63,111 nucleotides of DNA from a phage. How positions within the stretch are numbered: position 1 is the first letter of the stretch; the number at the start of each line of letters is the position of its first letter. Positions 4,514-59,837 of this stretch are shown piece after piece. The translations under genes and the position numbers were made by a program. The notes under the pieces were generated by a model. That model made no database searches. It worked only from the letters and a program-made list of their open reading frames with translations, and was not told the origin of the DNA. The DNA lies in NCBI GenBank assembly GCA_033178465.1, contig GCA_033178465.1_4726.1. The stretch is one strand, 5' to 3'.

Positions 4514-4695
4514 GAACTTTGGAGTGCAGTAGCGTAACCGTATTATCCTCCCCTCTATCTCGCTTTGTCGGGGTAGAGGGGCAATATGCGCGGAATTTTA
4601 TGCGGTCGTCTGGACTGTTTACGTTTACCTCGAATCACACTCTGGTTTCGAGGAGTTATATATTTTAATTTGATTGTTGGAGGAGGGTTGCGCTT

Positions 4696-20306: not shown

Positions 20307-20933
20307 ATGAGCAAGAATAAAGACCAACGTTCTGCAAAAATGGACGAGGAGATTACTGCGGTAGAAACCACCGTTGCAGATGCTCCGGTTAGTGATGTTG
20401 TAACACAGCCGGAAACGGTCGCTGTTGAGAAGAAGGAAACCGTTGTTGAAGAAAAGCCTGCGAAACCAGCGGTGAAAGAATCGCCTGCTGTTTCTATCGT
20501 GGCTTCTCGTGCCGCAACCCTGGTTGCTCCGTTCCAGAAATATGCGGAAGAAATGGGTCCGACCATGCCGCAAACGCCGCAGTCGTTGATCCGCCATCAG
20601 CGGTCTTTAATGTCTGCTTTCCGTGCGTTACTGGATGTGGATAATCCTGAGGTTTTCCGCACCGCCTTTGCTGATATTCTGAAGATCTGGAAAGATAACA
20701 GCGAAGGGGCATTTAACGCAAACCGTTATCTGTATCGCGGTATCGATAACATGCCGCTGGACTACCATACCCGCATGGCTTTCCTGACAGTACTGCGTCT
20801 GATGGATGCGATCTATGATGAAAGCCGTCGCCAAGTTGAAATCCGCGCTATCGACCTTAATATCGCAATTCCTGAAATTGCTTACTTCGATACGCGTAAC
20901 TATCTGGCAGGTTACATGCGTCGCTTTGCATAA
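20307..20933 (+). CDS. hypothetical abundant protein (host-optimised codon usage), Lys/Glu/Val/Ala-rich N-terminus
   Basis: 208-aa ORF, AAAGGAAA RBS; codon choice dominated by CTG/CGT/GGT/GAA/AAA/ACC unlike neighbouring genes. Confidence 0.75.
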   Translation: MSKNKDQRSAKMDEEITAVETTVADAPVSDVVTQPETVAVEKKETVVEEKPAKPAVKESPAVSIVASRAATLVAPFQKYAEEMGPTMPQTPQSLIRHQRSLMSAFRALLDVDNPEVFRTAFADILKIWKDNSEGAFNANRYLYRGIDNMPLDYHTRMAFLTVLRLMDAIYDESRRQVEIRAIDLNIAIPEIAYFDTRNYLAGYMRRFA

Positions 20934-21146
20934 CGTCTAATGCGACGTAACGGGATTGCTGTCGTTACGACGTAGGAGGTGATCCTGATCTCCCTCACTC
21001 GCGGGGTGATGCGATAATCGTCGTGAGCTTGTCGTGAGAGATTCTCATTGCGGTCATAAACTCTTCCCGCCCCATATAAGGGCAGGGAAGGGCTTTATGC
21101 CGTTGAATTTATCCTGTGCAGAAAATAAAAATAGGAAAAGCACTCC

Positions 21147-21548
21147 ATGAACGAAACACTCGAACAACCCGCAATCTATCGTTGGACATCCGTTTGGAAT
21201 TATTTTTCTTTTAGCGTTGACACCGCAATGCAAGCTGTAATGGATTATAAGAATACCGGCAAAACGAACGAATGGTTAGTCATGCCCTGCGGCGACCTTA
21301 TTCGTACTGAAGGAATGTATTTCCCTAATGCCGGGAAAGACCGCCGTATCCAGGACAGGATGCGTACGACGATTCTGACGAATGGTGACGTCATGATCGA
21401 ATGTTGGGCTGATTACCCCATCGATCGTGAACACCAGGATGAAATCTACCAGCGTTTACGCGATGAAATGGTTGCTGCAATGAAGCGGTATCCGTGTCGC
21501 GTTAAGCTGTATTGCTGGTTAAACGGCAATGCCGTCCACGACATTTAA
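21147..21548 (+). CDS. hypothetical small protein (first member of tandem small-gene array)
   Basis: 133-aa ORF, flanked by hairpins at 21061-21091 and 21554-21594. Confidence 0.65.
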   Translation: MNETLEQPAIYRWTSVWNYFSFSVDTAMQAVMDYKNTGKTNEWLVMPCGDLIRTEGMYFPNAGKDRRIQDRMRTTILTNGDVMIECWADYPIDREHQDEIYQRLRDEMVAAMKRYPCRVKLYCWLNGNAVHDI

Positions 21549-21553
21549 TCTCT

Positions 21554-21594
21554 CTCCCTCTTCCCACCGTCCTCTTGAAGGATGGGGAGGAGGG
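21554..21594 (+). terminator. GC-rich imperfect hairpin followed by GGGTTCTATGCTG
   Basis: CCCTCTTCCCACCGTCC…GGATGGGGAGGAGGG after stop of 21147-21548. Confidence 0.5.
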
Positions 21595-21621
21595 TTCTAT
21601 GCTGTTTATTTCTTGTTAACA

Positions 21622-21680
21622 CAGTTTATTTCATGGCTATATTACTAAGGTGATAAGAGCAAAGTATTTTATCAACTATT
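21622..21680 (+). promoter_or_regulatory. conserved promoter-like element (CAGTTTATTTC-N5-CTATATTAC-N-AGGTGATAA) with downstream inverted repeat
   Basis: 33/36 identical to element at 59784-59819; contains TATATTAC; ~60 nt upstream of gene start 21718. Confidence 0.45.
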
Positions 21681-21717
21681 TAAGATAACTGCAATCAATC
21701 CAATATAAGAGGATGTC

Positions 21718-22146
21718 ATGATGTTACAAGCTATAACCGGGCATATTACCGCTAACTATATTACCGTTGTAGAATTTCTGCGTAAACGAAAATACGAAAA
21801 ACAAAACCCAATTCTTGAAGATAGTACGTACAAAACAAAAATCTTTCGCGTCAATCACAATACAACCGTCGCAACATCTGAAACAGGTTACACAGTTTAT
21901 ATCGACTGTGATGGATTAATCCCTAACGTTAAAGCACGTGCGGCGACACTGTTAAAAGTCAAAGCATTGCTAGATAAAAACAGACCACGCATCACAGGTT
22001 TTGACGGCAAAGACATTGCTTTTGTTTATCACTTCGACAAACGTTATTCATTTTTCCAGTATTACAACCAGGATGGTCTGTTAACGCATAACGGACCGGC
22101 GGTTGAGATTTACAGTCGTTATGCGTTATATGCATCACTGAATTGA
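21718..22146 (+). CDS. hypothetical small protein
   Basis: 142-aa ORF, AAGAGGA RBS; preceded by conserved 36-bp promoter-like element; followed by classic hairpin+T7 terminator. Confidence 0.7.
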   Translation: MMLQAITGHITANYITVVEFLRKRKYEKQNPILEDSTYKTKIFRVNHNTTVATSETGYTVYIDCDGLIPNVKARAATLLKVKALLDKNRPRITGFDGKDIAFVYHFDKRYSFFQYYNQDGLLTHNGPAVEIYSRYALYASLN

Positions 22147-22172
22147 TTTTTCCTGCGTGTGTCTGACGTTTT

Positions 22173-22197
22173 GGTGGGGTTCGCCCCACCTTTTTTT
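22173..22197 (+). terminator. canonical intrinsic terminator (hairpin + T7 run)
   Basis: GGTGGGG-TTCG-CCCCACC followed by TTTTTTT, 27 nt after stop of 21718-22146. Confidence 0.8.
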
Positions 22198-22245
22198 ACA
22201 GCTTTTCATCATTAATTGAACTCAAGAGAATTTAAGGAATTCGAT

Positions 22246-22848
22246 ATGTCAATTACACAATTCGCGAACAGCATTCGTTCCAGTGAAGTCACCGTACAGC
22301 TCCTTAAAGACGAGCTACGCAAAGAACATGAAACCGCAGCCAACTATCTGAAAGAAATCGAAGCGTCAGTTTATAGTGAACTGGATAACGTAGAACGTTT
22401 CTTGCAGGCTGGGATGGATGAAAACATGGATCCAAACAAAGAAGTGTTAAAGCCACGTGTTGACTTTTACGGTTCAGATATCGATCGTGCGATTATTCGC
22501 ATGTATCCTAACGATTATGTCAAGGTCGACCTCAATCCAATTGTAACCAACATCAATATCGACCTGAAAGAAAAGATCGATCTGGCGAGACCTGATGGAG
22601 ATATCTTGCACGCGATGAACGCGATCGCAGTACTGAAAGCAGCTATTGTCGATACACTCAAGGAACGCAATGAACGTCGTCTGGTTATCAGCGTGGATTC
22701 CGATTCATTTTCTTTTTCGGTCTACATCGATGCCGACGGTGAAGAAGGAAATCCAAAAGACGTTCATCGTCAGCTTGCTGAGTACATCGGCGAGAGACCG
22801 AGTTTCGGTATGGGTTCCATAATCGTCGATATGTTAGAAAGCATGTGA
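22246..22848 (+). CDS. hypothetical small protein
   Basis: ATG at 22246 with AAGGA RBS (track start 22216 is TTG); ~200 aa. Confidence 0.65.
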   Translation: MSITQFANSIRSSEVTVQLLKDELRKEHETAANYLKEIEASVYSELDNVERFLQAGMDENMDPNKEVLKPRVDFYGSDIDRAIIRMYPNDYVKVDLNPIVTNINIDLKEKIDLARPDGDILHAMNAIAVLKAAIVDTLKERNERRLVISVDSDSFSFSVYIDADGEEGNPKDVHRQLAEYIGERPSFGMGSIIVDMLESM

Positions 22849-22891
22849 TCGCCCTATCCCAACTAACATTTAGATTAAAAAAGAGGTGAAT

Positions 22892-23386
22892 ATGGATAAG
22901 AAAGTTGAAATGCATGGTATTTGCGGGCGTCCTGCGGAAACGTCTAAAATAAAGGATAGGGTATCAGCTCTTCTCAATTTAGTGCCCAATACCGTACTAG
23001 TTGCATGTTGGGATATTATCGACACAACGATGCTGCGATTCGAGGCGAATTTAAGGAACAACAGTTGCTGGAGTCCCGCTTTGTCGGTTGACGATAAAGT
23101 CTATCTCGTAAACGAGACAACCGATAAAGATAATAATCGTATCGATCGTTGGCGTTTTGCGTTGCACGACAACGTTGTTAGTATCGACGTTATACTGAGT
23201 ATAACAGGTGAATCGTGTATTGCTGTCAATGAAATAGCGGCATACGCCAAACTAAAATTAGCACAGTGTTTTCATTCGCGTGTCCGAGGATTCGATATGC
23301 CCGTTATACTAACAATCAACGGGCACGACGGTTCAGGGCTGTTCGAATTCCACTACGATCCCGACAATGAAAATACAGAAGAGTAA
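22892..23386 (+). CDS. small protein, member of tandem paralogue family (C-terminal …EYxPDNE motif)
   Basis: ATG at 22892 with AAGAGG RBS; C-terminus (…FDMPVILTINGHDGSGLFEFHYDPDNENTEE) paralogous to 23460-23921 and 23921-24385. Confidence 0.7.
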   Translation: MDKKVEMHGICGRPAETSKIKDRVSALLNLVPNTVLVACWDIIDTTMLRFEANLRNNSCWSPALSVDDKVYLVNETTDKDNNRIDRWRFALHDNVVSIDVILSITGESCIAVNEIAAYAKLKLAQCFHSRVRGFDMPVILTINGHDGSGLFEFHYDPDNENTEE

Positions 23387-23400
23387 TTAATCAACGATAT

Positions 23401-23425
23401 CGTGTCCCTTGTTAGGTGGGACACG
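23401..23425 (+). terminator. hairpin after 22892-23386
   Basis: CGTGTCCC-TTGTTAGGT-GGGACACG inverted repeat. Confidence 0.5.
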
Positions 23426-23459
23426 TATCGGTTAAAAGGTGTCGAAGGTGTTAAAAAAA

Positions 23460-23921
23460 ATGACGACATGGGATTCTTACGGTGAGCAGCTGGTAGAATC
23501 GATAATTAAAAGCTTTGAAATACTCGAAGTAAGATTGCAGGAGGACGGGTGCTGGGAATTATTTAACGAGCCCGATTCCGACTCCGAACCTTACTTCTAC
23601 AACCTATCCGTTCCAACAACACAACACGGCAATGCTACGATTGTAGATATCACCGACATCAGAGTTTACAATAATCGTATCGCTGCGACAGCACAATTAC
23701 CTTTCAGCGTAAACGGGCTTGCCGCAAAGCAACTTCTAATGTATACAGCCAACGAGACATTTGGTAAATGCATAAAGTCGCACGGTATCTCGTTCCCCCT
23801 AGCGATCGATTATGAATTATCGGATGGCTGCAATCTCGTTACATTGGAGTATGAACCAGATAATGGAACAGAGAGTGCTGTTATCTCTGTTCCGATGAAG
23901 ATGAAGAAAGAGGTAGAATAA
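23460..23921 (+). CDS. small protein, member of tandem paralogue family
   Basis: C-terminus QLPFSVNGLAAKQL…ISFPLAIDYELSDGCNLVTLEYEPDNGTE; start assigned to ATG at 23460 (alternative GTG 23439/23448 possible). Confidence 0.65.
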   Translation: MTTWDSYGEQLVESIIKSFEILEVRLQEDGCWELFNEPDSDSEPYFYNLSVPTTQHGNATIVDITDIRVYNNRIAATAQLPFSVNGLAAKQLLMYTANETFGKCIKSHGISFPLAIDYELSDGCNLVTLEYEPDNGTESAVISVPMKMKKEVE

Positions 23922-24385
23922 TGGCAACAACGTATTCATTCGAATCTAACGTCAACGAACTTTTCGACTCGCATAAAGACGCTTACGTCACGCCTGTTGC
24001 TGACACCGTCACTCGAAGTATCGAATCTCTCAAACAAAATCTACGCAAATCCGATATTTGGTCGGTGGGACATAGCGATAATGACGGGACGTATTTTACC
24101 ATCGTGGAACGCATCCCAACAATACCGTTCCATAGCGTTTATCTCGACAGTACCGTTGTTTTCTATGTTTACAAGCACCGTATCCTTATCAACATACAAC
24201 TACCATTCAGCGTCAGCGGGGTTGATGCTATACGTCGGTTGTCTGATGTTGCTAATAACGCATTTACGAAATCAGCTATGCCGTGCGATTTCCCTATTAC
24301 GGTAACACTCAAGTTTTCCGATGGTTATGAATTCTACACGATGGAGTACTCTCCAGATGAAGAAGGAACTAACACCAAAGAGTAA
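23921..24385 (+). CDS. small protein, member of tandem paralogue family
   Basis: C-terminus QLPFSVSGVDAIRRL…DFPITVTLKFSDGYEFYTMEYSPDEEGTN; TAATG overlap with previous gene. Confidence 0.7.
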   Translation: MATTYSFESNVNELFDSHKDAYVTPVADTVTRSIESLKQNLRKSDIWSVGHSDNDGTYFTIVERIPTIPFHSVYLDSTVVFYVYKHRILINIQLPFSVSGVDAIRRLSDVANNAFTKSAMPCDFPITVTLKFSDGYEFYTMEYSPDEEGTNTKE

Positions 24386-24399
24386 TTACACGTAAACAT

Positions 24400-24432
24400 G
24401 CCCTTCCCTAGCCGTCAAGGCCGGGGAAGGGC
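24400..24432 (+). terminator. GC-rich hairpin after 23921-24385
   Basis: GCCCTTCCC…TCAA…GGGAAGGGC followed by TGTATACC. Confidence 0.5.
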
Positions 24433-24461
24433 TGTATACCGACTACACAGGAAAAGAAACA

Positions 24462-24902
24462 ATGAACATGAAAACCGACAAATCGATGAAAAAGCGCTTA
24501 GATCGTCTATTCAATGGTCCCACGGTAGCCTCCGTCGTTGAGGATGTTATTACTCAAGCATTCGAATGCGTGGACAGAGGTCTTAATAGTATCCTTGGAT
24601 GGCATCAGAAAGAACGTGAAGGTAAGCTCGTCCAGTGTTACAATGAACGTCACTTTGATGATGGTGGTATCAGTGGCGATTACTTTATCTATTTATTTCC
24701 CGATAAAATCACGATCAACATCGAATTCGATAATGCGATGAACGATCAGGAAATAACATCGATGCGCCAAGCCGCAAAACAAGCCTTCGGACGTTGCGTG
24801 GAGCAATACGATCCTGATGTGTTTATCACGTGCCGCATTTTCATCGAACCGAGAAAATTAATTCAGCATATGTCCTACGGCACCACGGATGATGATATCT
24901 AA
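24462..24902 (+). CDS. small protein, probable divergent member of tandem paralogue family
   Basis: 146-aa ORF; C-terminus ITINIEFDN…VEQYDPDVFITCRIFIEP resembles family pattern. Confidence 0.6.
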   Translation: MNMKTDKSMKKRLDRLFNGPTVASVVEDVITQAFECVDRGLNSILGWHQKEREGKLVQCYNERHFDDGGISGDYFIYLFPDKITINIEFDNAMNDQEITSMRQAAKQAFGRCVEQYDPDVFITCRIFIEPRKLIQHMSYGTTDDDI

Positions 24903-24972
24903 CGAAGGTGAACAACACCTTCAAACATAAATCAATACATCAATCAATCGACATAACCACTAGGAGCATTCA

Positions 24973-25458
24973 ATGAACATCAACTTTACTATCGAATCCG
25001 GCGATTACATGAACGATCGTGATATCATCCCATTCTACCGTGAGGATTTCCGCAACGCTATTCTTAAAACGATTGAGGATGTCTTGGATCTCGCTGAAGA
25101 TCAACTTAGCAGCATCACCCCTGAAACACACGTAAAAGCACGTGACGAAGCTCTGGGTGACTTGTATATACCTAAAGCCTGTGATCGCTGCTGCTTCACT
25201 GATTTCTTCGTGTCTACGCAAGCGGTCGTTACCGACGATGGGAAGCATCACGTGATCCTTATCTTGGCTTCTCATGAGCCTATGATCAATCACGCACTTT
25301 CTTTTACACCCGGGTACATCTATGCCCTTGCAAACAAGCCGATGATCAACGAAATCATTGCTGACATCCTTAGTCAGATTTGCAAAGAACATGGATTCCT
25401 GTCTATTTTCTTAACCGACGCTGACTACAAAGTAACGGTTGGTAACGAACGCGCATAA
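24973..25458 (+). CDS. hypothetical small protein
   Basis: 161-aa ORF, AGGAG RBS; followed by GC-rich hairpin 25463-25499. Confidence 0.65.
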   Translation: MNINFTIESGDYMNDRDIIPFYREDFRNAILKTIEDVLDLAEDQLSSITPETHVKARDEALGDLYIPKACDRCCFTDFFVSTQAVVTDDGKHHVILILASHEPMINHALSFTPGYIYALANKPMINEIIADILSQICKEHGFLSIFLTDADYKVTVGNERA

Positions 25459-25462
25459 ACCT

Positions 25463-25499
25463 CCACCCCTCCCTCCGGCTTCCGCCAGGGGGGAGGGGC
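25463..25499. terminator. GC-rich hairpin between convergent blocks (after 24973-25458)
   Basis: CCCCTCCCTCCGGC-TTCC-GCCAGGGGGGAGGGG followed by CTTCGCATGCG and TTTTCTTTTTG. Confidence 0.5.
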
Positions 25500-26297
25500 T
25501 TCGCATGCGTTTTCTTTTTGTTAGGCGAGGATCAACGGGATGACCCTTATCGTATCACTTGAATCATTCGATGGTCCGCGCTTCCTCTTTCGGACGCGTC
25601 GCATCGAAATGCTCTAAGAGTTCAAACATCGATGGTGCTTTATAAACGATTCTACAGAAGTCTACAGCGTTCGTTTTACCTCCGGTAATAAAGTTGATAC
25701 CTAACTTCCTGAATTGATAGTCAGAGACGCCCTCAATGCGTGATAGCTCACGGAAAACACAGGCTCTGGATAGATTCAACAGGATCTGCCCGTTTGGATA
25801 ACTTGAAGATATATCGAGCTCTTACGATGGCTCAGTAATTTCTATACATGAACACAACGAAAAATAGACCATATCTTAGCCTGTCTTAGATTCGCGTTAG
25901 CAAACCAAACGGTGTTTCTACAACACCTCGACCGACTTCTCCCTTTTCAGAGAATATCCTAATTCTCCTACTCCGCGCAACCGGATGGTCGTTGAACGTT
26001 ACCCGTAGCCTGTCCGTGTTAACCACGCCGACTTATGAAGCCGGTCACGACAGTCCGTAGGGTCTTCGCTGCTACGGTTACCTTATTTCTATCTTCTACC
26101 CTTAGTACCACTGTCGCCTTTCGCTATCCAAGAAAGCAGTGGCTTTTATTGCAACATAGGTAATCCCCTCCAACTTTTTTCTGTCTTTCGACAACCATCA
26201 CGTTTACCCTTTCGGATTGCGTTGTGGTGTGGAGGGGCATTAAAGGTTTCCAGCAATTAAAGAGAGTTCGCCCACTCATTACAAGTAGGGGGACCTG

Positions 26298-27488
26298 TTA
26301 TCGTTCTAATGGAACATTAAATACACGCTTCTTCTTAGGAACTAATTTATTAACATCGAAATCAGGCATGGCGGCAATATCATCAGCGTAGCGGAAGCAC
26401 CAAGGTTGTTTCGTAGGTACTGCGCGTCTATCACAATGGCGACGTACGGTAATCCAGGAGATTCCTAACGCATTTGCAGCAGCAGTTACCGATGGGAACA
26501 CATGTCGCTCGTTCGTCTCTTTATTAATAGCAAGAATACCACGACCATCGGTGTCCTCGACGCGACGATCTTCTCCGAGTTTCCACTCAGGCCAAGGCGT
26601 ATTATCCGTGGCAAACTTGATGTACAAATCGCATTCTGGAATACGTTTTGGTGGATTGTTCACCCACCATTTGAAACGTCCTTTCGGCACGTACGGATAA
26701 GCACGTTCCGCTTCTGCGATACTATTAAAACGACGTTCGATTCGTGCACGGTAATCATAAACCAAAACAGGTTTTGACGTACCTATACACAACCCTGCCA
26801 TACGAGCATGTTGATTGTTCTCAGCATATGTTGCCCATTCGAGGTTATCAAACCAATCGTCACCTTTAATTCCGTTCTTATGGTTTACGGTTAAGTTAAC
26901 AACGTTAGCGTCATATCTCGTAAACGCTAACATGATAGCTCGATGACGATACAATTGCGGTGTAAACCCGCTATCAGGAACCACTTTACGATAAGCGTAT
27001 CCGCCAAGACGCGTACCCTGTTGAACCGTTTTCGTCCACGTGATAGGATCCAACGAAAGAAGACTAATACAGTGTCCTTCTTTATTTATCGCGTAACGAG
27101 ATGCGAACGGAATATAACAATAACCTTCGAATCCCTCAACTTCTAACGGCCCATTACGGAAACGATAGATGTGATTGTTATACGAAAAGTTAGTCGGATC
27201 TCCATCCACAAACAACGATTCAATTTCATCGTAAAGATGGTCTGGTAAAACAACCCGTTCGAGAGCAGTGAGAACGATCATGCCGAGATCGTATTTTCCA
27301 ACGCCTCTATACCAATCGATTTCAACATAAGGGACACCATCTACAACTTCGTAAGGGACGACCCTATCTTCTTTATAGTCGTACAACTCGCCATCTTCAA
27401 ATATACGATAACGACGATTGGTATACGGTAAATAAGCTGAATCTCGATAGTCAATAGTTCCAGTTTGAGTATGTATAGATTTTTCCAT
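26298..27488 (-). CDS. HNH homing endonuclease with C-terminal helix-turn-helix-like DNA-binding motifs
   Basis: 396-aa ORF; HNH motif NHKNGIKGDDWFDNLEWATYAENNQHA; C-terminal FPSVTAAANALGISWITVRRH resembles homing-endonuclease HTH/NUMOD-type motifs; free-standing next to a DNA-metabolism gene. Confidence 0.8.
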   Translation of the reverse strand: MEKSIHTQTGTIDYRDSAYLPYTNRRYRIFEDGELYDYKEDRVVPYEVVDGVPYVEIDWYRGVGKYDLGMIVLTALERVVLPDHLYDEIESLFVDGDPTNFSYNNHIYRFRNGPLEVEGFEGYCYIPFASRYAINKEGHCISLLSLDPITWTKTVQQGTRLGGYAYRKVVPDSGFTPQLYRHRAIMLAFTRYDANVVNLTVNHKNGIKGDDWFDNLEWATYAENNQHARMAGLCIGTSKPVLVYDYRARIERRFNSIAEAERAYPYVPKGRFKWWVNNPPKRIPECDLYIKFATDNTPWPEWKLGEDRRVEDTDGRGILAINKETNERHVFPSVTAAANALGISWITVRRHCDRRAVPTKQPWCFRYADDIAAMPDFDVNKLVPKKKRVFNVPLER

Positions 27489-27577
27489 CTCGTAAACCTC
27501 ATGTAATATCTAGATGTATCGGCCTCTCTTATGCCGCACACAATTCTTACATGAAGTAAACTTTTACAGAACGAAGG

Positions 27578-29077
27578 TTAATCCGCAACAAATAATCGAA
27601 TATAGCTCCTTAAATTAGGCATATCCCAGAATAGATGAATGCCGTTGTCCGCCATGAGATCGCACGGTAATGTGACGATATGTCCGGTTCGTGAGATAAC
27701 CCACTTATCTTCTTCCTGGGTCATGTCGTCAGCGGTACATCCCATGACTTCCCCACGGTTAAGATAAACGAAGAAAAGTTTATCGCAGATACGTTTAGGG
27801 TTAGAACTGAAATCCTTCAAATCCGATGCCGCTAAACGAATCGGGATGGTCATCGAATAGTCTTTTGTTTTCTGGTCCAACGCCTCGATGCCTTGGTTAT
27901 CCCAAAGGTTATATACGCCGTAGTCGATTTGATGGTTCGTTTGCATCTCTTCGTGCCACGCAAGCTCCGTGAACCCCTCTGTACCAGGAATCGCTTTTAA
28001 TTTCGTATGGCATTTATTTCGCTCTAATACCGCATCGAGTGAATAGCGTCCTTCATCCGGTCTTCCTAAACGAACGAACTTATAACCACACATCGCATCC
28101 ATAACCTGATACGTAGCCATCGTATAAAACATCGGCCAGGTCTGCTCAAGGGTAAGGTTGGTTTTACGACCTGAAGCAGATACCTTGTCGGTCTTCGGTG
28201 GTACCCAGCGAGCAATACGATATTTAGGTGGTACACGAGGATCGGAGAAAACATCCTCGGGACGATACCCTTCCTCGTTCAGCGCCTGGAGCATGCGTGG
28301 AATATCGAACGCGATATTCCAGCCAAGGAGATAATCCGGCTGCCATTCGTGAACCTTCTGCATGCATTGGATGACCGCTTGCGCCGGACTTTCTACGATT
28401 CGCACATCGTAATGATATTTTTCGAACGCATGAGGATCTTCTTTGGTGTTCAGACGTTCGGCCAGGTAATATCGAATCTTCTCGTGGGTTTTCTCAATCG
28501 CATTCGGAATATGACCAACGAAGTCCTTGGTATAGCAAAGTATCGCATTGTATCCCATTGTAATAGACATACAGACGATCTTACCGTGCCCGTGGACAAC
28601 GTCGGTTTCGATATCGAAACAGGCAATGGAAGCGGGTAATTTATCGACGTATTCCGGCCATTTTGTATTGTATTGGGTTTTTAAATAACAGCTGGCGCTA
28701 ACGTCCGTACCATAGAGGTATGGACTCCGGGCGAGCTGTTGTAAACGGGTGTTATCGTCAGCACGTCTTTTATAAAGCACCGAACTGATCTTTTCAACCA
28801 GTTCACTTTGGCGGACATCATAGCGACGCACATGCGAGAGCTTCTCGCTTTCCTTTTTATATTTGTTCTTGCGTTTACTCTCTACTGTCACCCAAAACGG
28901 ACGTTTGTAATTCTCAAAGAAGCGAAGGTTCGTCGCTTGCGTATTATCATCGAAGAACACGATCTCTTTTGCGATCATGAGGTCGTTCTTGCTGCCATCG
29001 TTCGCTTCGTTATAGCTGATGTGTCGACATTGAATACCGAGCAGTTTCTTCTTAGGTTTTCGTTCTTGTTCGCTCAT
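27578..29077 (-). CDS. DEDD-type 3'-5' exonuclease domain protein (candidate proofreading/split DNA polymerase fragment)
   Basis: 499-aa ORF; motifs CFDIETD (Exo I), LLGWNIAFDIP (Exo II), YGVYNLWD (Exo III-like); no polymerase palm motifs seen in this ORF. Confidence 0.55.
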   Translation of the reverse strand: MSEQERKPKKKLLGIQCRHISYNEANDGSKNDLMIAKEIVFFDDNTQATNLRFFENYKRPFWVTVESKRKNKYKKESEKLSHVRRYDVRQSELVEKISSVLYKRRADDNTRLQQLARSPYLYGTDVSASCYLKTQYNTKWPEYVDKLPASIACFDIETDVVHGHGKIVCMSITMGYNAILCYTKDFVGHIPNAIEKTHEKIRYYLAERLNTKEDPHAFEKYHYDVRIVESPAQAVIQCMQKVHEWQPDYLLGWNIAFDIPRMLQALNEEGYRPEDVFSDPRVPPKYRIARWVPPKTDKVSASGRKTNLTLEQTWPMFYTMATYQVMDAMCGYKFVRLGRPDEGRYSLDAVLERNKCHTKLKAIPGTEGFTELAWHEEMQTNHQIDYGVYNLWDNQGIEALDQKTKDYSMTIPIRLAASDLKDFSSNPKRICDKLFFVYLNRGEVMGCTADDMTQEEDKWVISRTGHIVTLPCDLMADNGIHLFWDMPNLRSYIRLFVAD

Positions 29078-59756: not shown

Positions 59757-59783
59757 TTCTATGCTGTCTTAAGCGCATCACTC

Positions 59784-59837
59784 CAGTTTATTTCGCGACT
59801 ATATTACCTAGGTGATAACAACGGTTACTGTTATCAC
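59784..59837 (+). promoter_or_regulatory. conserved promoter-like element with downstream perfect inverted repeat GTGATAACA-N8-TGTTATCAC
   Basis: Second copy of 36-bp element; ~50 nt upstream of gene start 59871. Confidence 0.45.

Follow-up and report, generated by a model that had tools for sequence, protein, structure and literature searches.

We analysed a 63,111-nucleotide stretch of phage DNA (hereafter the window; NCBI GenBank assembly GCA_033178465.1, contig GCA_033178465.1_4726.1) and, more precisely, a tandem array of eight small genes at positions 21147-25458. The array is an accessory gene island amid conserved genes of a Goslar-like chimallivirus, and it carries one expanded family of orphan proteins. 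The 6 kb around it match Escherichia phage vB_EcoM_Goslar (MK327938), a nucleus-forming jumbo phage of E. coli that belongs to Chimalliviridae, with 92% nucleotide identity over 90% of their length, and gave no other match among GenBank phage records. The array DNA had no match in the complete E. coli genome and plasmid collections. We label the eight open reading frames (ORFs) g1 to g8 in their order, whereas the Goslar counterparts are numbered from gp76 down to gp70 (Table 1). All of gp76-gp70 are labelled hypothetical in the Goslar record, and we found no paper discussing gp70-76, mentions being confined to supplementary tables. One flank of the array holds the counterparts of gp78, a virion RNA polymerase subunit, and gp77, a capsid decorator protein (virion-structure preprint, 10.64898/2026.04.21.720040), with the decorator gene at 20307-20933. 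The other flank holds, on the opposite strand, HNH endonuclease and DNA polymerase genes.

The first-pass annotation, made from the sequence alone, had placed eight small genes here, and we recovered all eight as co-oriented ORFs on the plus strand at the same coordinates. They are real genes, since their orthologues, found in up to 8 related phage loci, are under purifying selection (ratio of nonsynonymous to synonymous substitution rates, dN/dS, of 0.10-0.35) and mass spectrometry peptides are available for all seven Goslar counterparts (10.64898/2026.04.21.720040, Table S4). Read by eye, most start codons are directly preceded by a purine-rich stretch resembling a ribosome-binding site. The stop codon of g5 and the start codon of g6 share one base (TAATG, 23919-23923), an overlap that suggests translational coupling of these two closest paralogues. 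Family genes are also tightly packed in relatives, 2-14 nucleotides apart (g6-x254, g7-x169 and x169-x143, where the x labels denote groups absent from the window). A Pfam scan of the eight array proteins and of the extra genes of relatives detected neither a helix-turn-helix nor any other Pfam domain.

Four of the eight genes, namely g4, g5, g6 and g7, are true paralogues of one family, to judge from sequence and profile comparisons. BLASTP related g5 to g6 (1.5e-16), g4 to g6 (6e-6) and g4 to g5 (1.6e-4), as the first-pass annotation had said. It had called g7 only probably related, and BLASTP of g7 against g4, g5 and g6 was indeed not significant (E about 0.3). However, a profile of g4, g5, g6, x143 and x254 aligned by hhalign to a profile of g7 and x169 over 119 columns with a probability of 97.0% (E 1.3e-10), and hidden Markov models (HMMs) of the two halves of the family found each other reciprocally (8e-7 and 1.6e-6). 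The same HMMs found nothing beyond the family among all six-frame ORFs of the window. Within the family, hhalign gave 97.6% for g5-g6, 92% for g4-g6 and 94% for g4-x254, and single-linkage clustering joined g4, g5, g6 and g7 with x254, x169 and x143. A full-length alignment of g7 with g4, g5 and g6 has L41, W47, A111 and Y143 in common. The x254 proteins (250-254 amino acids) carry an extra C-terminal part that looks like a weak, partial second copy of the domain (hhalign 26%, E 7e-4), for which Pfam and PHROG gave no match.

The four members are diverged copies with 15-30% identity, all acidic (isoelectric points of 4.35-5.07). The description of a conserved C-terminal half joined to a variable N-terminal half suits g5 and g6, which are 40% identical in the former and 19% in the latter, and does not extend to the other pairs, at 13-23% in both halves. 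The all-against-all profile comparison proposed in the first-pass annotation relates these four genes, whereas g1, g2, g3 and g8 are related neither to the family nor among themselves as far as it can detect (hhalign probabilities of 0.1-0.4%, BLASTP E >1). All eight proteins may yet form one diverged superfamily, an idea prompted by the apparent helix plus beta-hairpin at the end of every sequence; profile comparison gave it no support, and the AlphaFold2 (AF2) model of g8 was too poor to be used for fold comparison (predicted local distance difference test, pLDDT, of 55).

Within the collections searched, the family was found only in Goslar-like phages. Searching 5.8 billion proteins with profiles by means of a word index gave 172 matches; among the matches listed, all those on long contigs lie on contigs of ~228-259 kb, and the source names are all E. 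coli, Salmonella or Shigella. HMMER, run exhaustively against 1.84 billion cluster representatives, returned 15 matches, of which 14 were the same orthologue groups or fragments of them and the last a low-complexity false positive. Searching 50,697 GenBank phage records with g3, g6 and g8 by tblastn gave nothing except Goslar. Family members had no match in sequence searches of Pfam, PHROG, NCBIfam and PDB, and relaxing the Pfam threshold to E up to 1 left the 8 array proteins and 30 family members without a match. The family is undescribed, is missing from the searched Pfam-A, PHROGs and NCBIfam, and has no recognisable fold relative. For g6 there are 36 orthologue clusters at 64-97% identity, and for g8, outside the family, just 7 homologue clusters among the 5.8 billion proteins.

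Conservation across the paralogues is limited to residues of the hydrophobic core: only L41 and W47 are invariant, A111 and Y143 are nearly so, and no polar residue is conserved. An enzyme is therefore unlikely, and a non-enzymatic binding or scaffold role is more likely. The AF2 model of g6, built from a 30-sequence family alignment (pLDDT 79, predicted template modelling score 0.72), has a predicted alpha/beta fold of two N-terminal helices, a four-stranded sheet, a helix, a C-terminal beta-hairpin and a disordered acidic tail. Foldseek found nothing in the PDB for this model at E 1e-3 or better. The best structural neighbour, below significance, was the T3S4 substrate-specificity-switch domain of the type III secretion ruler PscP (PDB 5cuk). 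In a library of predicted viral structures the only match was the Goslar protein A0A482GHL3 (E 3e-10, template modelling score 0.71), which has 163 amino acids, the length of gp73.

The content of the island varies markedly among relatives. Orthologue groups were built from the array region of seven further Goslar-like genomes or contigs. From the decorator gene to the island end, the gene count is 8 in the window, 7 in Goslar and 10 to 13 in each of the other complete loci (L005, L007, L009, L010 and L011), giving a range of 7 to 13 in 8 relatives; the locus of L004 ends at g7, so that its array is incomplete. Among the eight relatives compared in detail, the copy number of the family goes from 3, in Goslar, to 7. 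Gene g8 is missing from three of the eight and, judged from gene length and position, is also present in L012. Family genes evolve faster than their neighbours: their mean amino-acid identity is 72-80%, while g0-g3 reach 90-92% and the virion RNA polymerase subunit 98.5%. Their dN/dS is 0.17-0.41, versus 0.02-0.16 for the neighbours.

A natural in-frame chimera of two paralogues (P0091) stands in place of both parental genes g4 and g5. Its residues 1-84 are of g4 type, its residues 81-163 are 99% identical to g5, the junction is an NNRI motif common to both, and the reading frame and domain layout are kept. It was found on two metagenomic contigs, L012 (5001-5492) and L013 (1690-2181), which may both come from one sample. 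The turnover of genes in the island goes beyond the main family, since two relatives have an extra ORF between g1 and the early promoter described below (L004 12555-13046, 163 amino acids; L012 2824-3279, 151 amino acids) and two have a tandem duplication of x132, a gene of 131-135 amino acids unrelated to the family (L004 16013-16843; L011 8264-9094). With conserved core genes as flanks, and a content and copy number that differ among close relatives, the region has the features of an accessory region.

Many Goslar-like contigs, several of them of 236-246 kb, lie inside NCBI assemblies labelled Salmonella enterica, Escherichia coli or Shigella flexneri, and protein matches on bacterial-labelled contigs include P0006, P0011, P0030, P0037, P0039, P0058, P0061 and P0092. 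This suggests that Goslar-like phages are often co-sequenced with bacterial isolates, either in a carrier state or as contamination.

Table 1. Genes, hairpins and candidate promoters of the array and related elements of the window. Loci (n/8) are those compared among relatives; identities are means among relatives; aa, amino acids; pI, isoelectric point.
Feature	Position	Strand	Description
g1	21147-21548	+	133 aa; = gp76; 8/8 loci, 92% identity, dN/dS 0.13; outside family
g2	21718-22146	+	142 aa, pI 9.4; = gp75; 8/8 loci, 90% identity, dN/dS 0.15; outside family
g3	22246-22848	+	200 aa, acidic; = gp74; 8/8 loci, 91% identity, dN/dS 0.10; outside family
g4	22892-23386	+	164 aa; family member; = gp73; 76% identity
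g5	23460-23921	+	153 aa; family member; no Goslar counterpart; 4/8 loci
g6	23921-24385	+	154 aa; family member; = gp72; 72% identity, dN/dS 0.35
g7	24462-24902	+	146 aa; divergent family member; = gp71
g8	24973-25458	+	161 aa, acidic; = gp70; 4/8 loci; outside family by sequence
Hairpin in decorator gene/g1 gap	21061-21101	+	CTCTTCCCGCCCC...GGGCAGGGAAGGG then TATG; -22 to -24 kcal/mol
Hairpin 3' of g1	21554-21604 (stem-loop to 21594)	+	followed by TATG; -25.8 kcal/mol
Early (virion RNA polymerase) promoter candidate, phiKZ type	21622-21656	+	CAGTTTATTTCATGGCTATATTACTAAGGTGATAA; precedes g2
Hairpin 3' of g2	22173-22197 (hairpin to 22190)	+	GGTGGGG-TTCG-CCCCACC + T7; conserved in all relatives
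Hairpin 3' of g4	23395-23430	+	no T-run; -20.8 kcal/mol
Hairpin directly 5' of g7	24400-24432	+	-29.3 kcal/mol
Weak hairpin 3' of g7	24904-24922	+	-10 kcal/mol; weak or none in comparable relatives
Hairpin between convergent g8 (+) and DNA polymerase 3' exon (-)	25466-25498	.	-30.1 kcal/mol
Second 35-nucleotide early motif copy	59783-59818	+	CCAGTTTATTTCGCGACTATATTACCTAGGTGATAAC; 3' of late-class gene and hairpin-TATG element

Published data on Goslar give the timing of these genes. Armbruster et al. knocked down the nuclear shell protein (ChmA) and set the Goslar transcripts against those of infections without knockdown, which gave two clear gene classes (10.1101/2023.09.20.558163, Sup. Table 2). 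Transcription of the early class continues in infections halted at the stage of the injected-genome vesicle, and this class matches the transcriptome at 5-20 min (10.1101/2023.09.20.558163). In these data (10.1101/2023.09.20.558163), the log2 fold change is about +1.05 to +1.17 for gp75, +1.06 to +1.09 for gp74, +1.0 to +1.3 for gp73, +1.03 to +1.16 for gp72, +1.1 for gp71 and +1.0 to +1.2 for gp70. The value for gp76 is -4.5 to -6.1, in the nucleus-dependent class, and gp76, gp77 and gp69 together span -3.6 to -6.1, like the major capsid gene. The Goslar orthologues gp75-gp70 are thus of the early class, independent of the phage nucleus, and gp76 is a nucleus-dependent middle or late gene. 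The suggestion that these might be early genes consequently stands for all the Goslar counterparts except that of g1. Given this split, the array consists of two units, g1 with the late decorator gene and g2-g8 early. Both these data and the proteomic data below are Goslar's (92% nucleotide identity) and are carried to the window genes by orthology, g5 having no Goslar orthologue.

The individually regulated cassettes proposed in the first-pass annotation were not borne out. Its promoter-like motifs are at chance level if taken as sigma-70-like (16 found versus 18.3 expected from shuffled sequence), and on these counts we ruled out a sigma-70 promoter before each gene. Instead, a single candidate early promoter precedes g2. 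Its 35-nucleotide motif contains, in an AT-rich context at 21638-21645, the sequence TATATTAC, which is the phiKZ early promoter consensus, and it also fits TATATTACDWHDGTG, the pattern of 201phi2-1 (PMC7058600, Table 2). The 24-nucleotide core of the motif occurs at 2 sites in 63 kb versus 0.18 expected, and one copy lies upstream of g2 in each of 8 relatives. We found none ahead of g3-g8 when searching the array. The genes after the other site in the window are, by product sizes and gene order, the probable homologues of the early-class Goslar genes gp47-gp44. Raw read density in Goslar is flat across gp75-gp70 (about 0.8-1.5 reads per nucleotide) and shows no step where the hairpins lie. 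We infer that g2-g8 form one early unit with a single candidate promoter of phiKZ type, read by the injected virion RNA polymerase.

GC-rich hairpins are present at all five sites where they had been listed, with energies of -14 to -30 kcal/mol versus a window mean of -7 (standard deviation 3.4). Strong hairpins follow 5 of the 8 genes. They do not insulate each gene, as had been claimed: we found no hairpin after g3 or g5, the one after g7 is weak, and only the hairpin at 22173-22197 has a T-run, resembling a canonical intrinsic terminator. The hairpins at 21554, 23395, 24400 and 25466 lack a T-run, and Goslar read density is not lowered after any hairpin. Several of the hairpins are maintained in evolution. 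In the gap before g1 the best hairpin sequence is the same in 7 of 8 relatives, L005 having a variant. After g1 the position is kept in all relatives and the hairpin sequences differ; after g4 a hairpin of -18 kcal/mol or stronger occurs at this position in 6 of 8. The hairpin before g7 is found in all relatives, whichever gene precedes it, and its stem is kept by paired changes (GCCC/GGGC to CTCC/GGAG; CCGG to CTAG). A hairpin of the type at 25466-25498 ends the array, after g8 or x143, in all seven relatives that have that end, and marks the end of the island.

Such hairpins are not specific to the array. A recurrent strong hairpin, whose 5' arm is rich in C and T and whose 3' arm is rich in G and A (in many cases CCCTCCTCC..CCC-loop-GGG..GGAGGAGGG), follows many genes across the window (for example at 4539, 14875, 21061, 21554, 37523, 45793, 48505, 54415 and 59715). 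TATG occurs within about 10 nucleotides 3' of 9 of the 17 strong hairpins of the window, versus a background of 3.5%, and the consensus of phiKZ late promoters, used by the non-virion RNA polymerase, is (-3)TATG(+1) (PMC7618050). The hairpin-TATG pairs may be couples of a terminator and a late promoter, and the element at 21061-21101 is a candidate for such a couple. Overall, the hairpins look like general transcript punctuation, marking 3' ends or terminators, rather than regulatory insulators of single genes.

The first-pass annotation had held that its reading would fail if the proteins proved to be structural components of the virion by mass spectrometry. Expressed as copies estimated per Goslar virion preparation, the family proteins are at trace levels, with 0.40 for gp73, 0.54 for gp72 and 3.7 for gp71 (10.64898/2026.04.21.720040, Table S4). 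These low values match those of carried-over non-virion RNA polymerase, ligase and helicase, and none of the three proteins is in the 28-protein model of the Goslar virion. Among the array proteins outside the family, gp75 has 0.48 copies, gp76 2.6, gp74 8 and gp70 about 166 (10.64898/2026.04.21.720040). The latter is 20- to 400-fold above its operon neighbours despite similar mRNA levels. In the same preparation PhuZ and chimallin, which are known contaminants, reach 171 and 126 copies (10.64898/2026.04.21.720040). The status of gp70, and by extension of g8, is ambiguous: it may be packaged, or it may be an unusually abundant or sticky early protein. An early-class gene can give an abundant virion protein, as gp158 does.

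We also considered the family as inner-body or internal proteins, because its tandem paralogues adjoin a virion RNA polymerase gene, as in phiKZ. This was ruled out by the presence of the PF12699 inner-body cluster elsewhere (Goslar gp53-58; in the window probably at about 44.4-54.4 kb, to judge from the order of the genes and the sizes of their products), the lack of a Pfam match and the trace level in virions. The array proteins had no match to Pfam PF25613 (DUF7941, virion or filament proteins of chimalliviruses), a model that does detect a true member beside the array in the relative L007.

A group I intron interrupts the DNA polymerase gene next to the array (25567-29077, minus strand; Goslar gp68, annotated with 499 amino acids). 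Exon 1 spans 29077-27581 (amino acids 1-499) and exon 2 spans 25821-25567 (amino acids 499-583), both on the minus strand and both about 99% identical to the uninterrupted gene of 583 amino acids in L010. The Rfam model Intron_gpI matches 25844-26362 on the minus strand over the full model, with 45.9 bits (threshold 50) and an E-value of 2.5e-9, and an HNH/NUMOD1 endonuclease ORF (26298-27488, gp69) lies within the intron. The intron therefore explains the 839-nucleotide stretch after g8 that looks empty. Its presence is polymorphic among relatives.

The first-pass annotation had seen in the array a likely place for host-takeover or anti-defence proteins. Its observation is mostly real, and this reading is plausible. 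In the explanation that we favour, the injected virion RNA polymerase would transcribe g2-g8 early, at a time when there is no phage nucleus yet, and the family proteins would be non-enzymatic binders that appear in the cytoplasm of the host at an early stage of infection. Each paralogue would probably bind a different factor of the host or of a competitor phage, for example a defence protein, and gain, loss and recombination of copies would keep the family diverse. That the family consists of early cytoplasmic binders, with targets that differ by paralogue and belong to host defence, host takeover or competitor phages, has in our opinion slightly less than an even chance of being right. Nucleus-forming jumbo phages are now known to face dedicated host defences in the time before their nucleus is formed; one of these defences, Avs5, senses an early-expressed jumbo-phage protein (PMC12931631). 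A more specific proposal sees in the family an arsenal of early inhibitors that diversifies and has a fold not seen before, each paralogue being directed against a different cytoplasmic defence or competitor phage before the nucleus is built. Duplication, loss and the swapping of N- and C-terminal halves, as in the g4/g5 chimera, would then provide new specificities. We regard this proposal as possible and on the doubtful side.

Several points weigh against early cytoplasmic binders. The searches of Pfam, PHROG, NCBIfam and PDB yielded no homology to a known inhibitor. dN/dS is below 1 in every orthologue group, and positive selection over whole genes was not shown. Timing and proteomics come from Goslar, at 92% nucleotide identity, where g5 has no orthologue. 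The model of a single promoter combines a motif with flat reads at one time point (30 min), and weak internal promoters are possible. Finally, early-class genes are expressed throughout infection (10.1101/2023.09.20.558163), and the product of the early-class gene gp158 is abundant in virions; early transcription is therefore no proof of an early cytoplasmic role.

Alternatively, the family could serve the phage's own early compartments and not act on host factors. Its members would then be accessory factors of the injected-genome vesicle or of the nuclear shell, or would help to import and sort proteins: the vesicle and nucleus biology of chimalliviruses needs many lineage-specific proteins, the genes are transcribed at the vesicle stage, and the shell-associated chimallin and PhuZ co-purify with virions at levels like that of gp70. 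However, such a role fits poorly with a copy number of 3 to 7 among phages whose polymerase subunits are 98.5% identical, with the natural dispensability of single members (g5 is missing in Goslar; x254, x169 and x143 are missing in the window), and with the absence of the family from any conserved gene set detected outside Goslar-like phages, and we consider it unlikely. The differences in gene content between very close relatives are what one expects of incompatibility determinants, and they could reflect competition between phages, the early proteins blocking a second, related jumbo phage (superinfection exclusion). The neighbourhood does hold an element of competition type, the group I intron with its homing endonuclease, which is present in some relatives and absent from others. 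This explanation has its mechanism, an early binder or inhibitor, in common with early cytoplasmic binders and would differ in the target only; taken by itself it seems quite unlikely.

Packaging in the virion and injection with the DNA, as for the inner-body paralogues gp53-58 of PF12699, would concern mainly g8. The abundance of gp70 relative to operon neighbours with 0.4-8 copies and similar mRNA levels speaks for it, as does the existence of early-class genes with abundant virion products, such as gp158. Nevertheless, non-virion proteins reach comparable copy numbers in the same preparation, so that gp70 may be an abundant contaminant; gp71, gp72 and gp73 stay in the range of carried-over enzymes and out of the virion model, and neither PF12699 nor DUF7941 matched. 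Packaging is improbable as an explanation of the array. It is highly improbable that the duplicated genes merely travel with a region prone to recombination, in decay or without a function, as their frequent gain and loss and very narrow distribution might suggest. This idea is largely refuted by the intact frames in all orthologue groups (dN/dS 0.17-0.41), by transcription and the peptides of gp71, gp72 and gp73, by the confident AF2 model, and by a chimera that preserves frame and domain layout.

Among nucleus-forming jumbo phages, Goslar serves as the E. coli model, and its host has genetics and libraries of defence systems. Since the island is transcribed early, evolves fast, varies in copy number and encodes an orphan family, it provides a short list of candidates for counter-defence or host-takeover factors: four genes here, gp71-73 in Goslar and up to seven in relatives. 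If the genes have ordinary internal roles, this would be just another uncharacterised accessory island.

Several known systems resemble the island in part. Within the same phage family, the PF12699 inner-body cluster (phiKZ gp92-97; Goslar gp53-58) also consists of tandem diverged paralogues, all encoded by the same strand and within the conserved genome half. However, its proteins are larger, are present in about 50-2150 copies per Goslar virion and are in some cases injected, whereas the family described here has no PF12699 match, is of the early class and occurs in virions as a trace. T4-like phages have a core genome and a plastic periphery, and plastic or 'hyperplastic' accessory regions are found in large lytic phages. 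As here, small genes of unknown function lie between core genes and their content varies among close relatives. What differs is that much of the present island is made of one orphan family and that its candidate promoter is one for the virion RNA polymerase, not for host sigma-70.

Phage anti-defence clusters include anti-CRISPR loci with an aca regulator and early anti-restriction genes such as T7 ocr. They share with the island small, often acidic, early and narrowly distributed proteins behind one promoter, but unlike acr/aca loci the island has no helix-turn-helix gene or other Pfam domain. The tandem paralogue arrays with which eukaryotic viruses counter host immunity, such as the 'genomic accordions' of poxviruses and MGF360/505 of African swine fever virus, likewise show tandem copies, a copy number that shifts between strains and rapid diversification. 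Viruses, hosts and folds are unrelated, and immune evasion is demonstrated there but inferred here. Islands of small early genes and multigene families of viruses are already well known, and it is the protein family itself that is undescribed.

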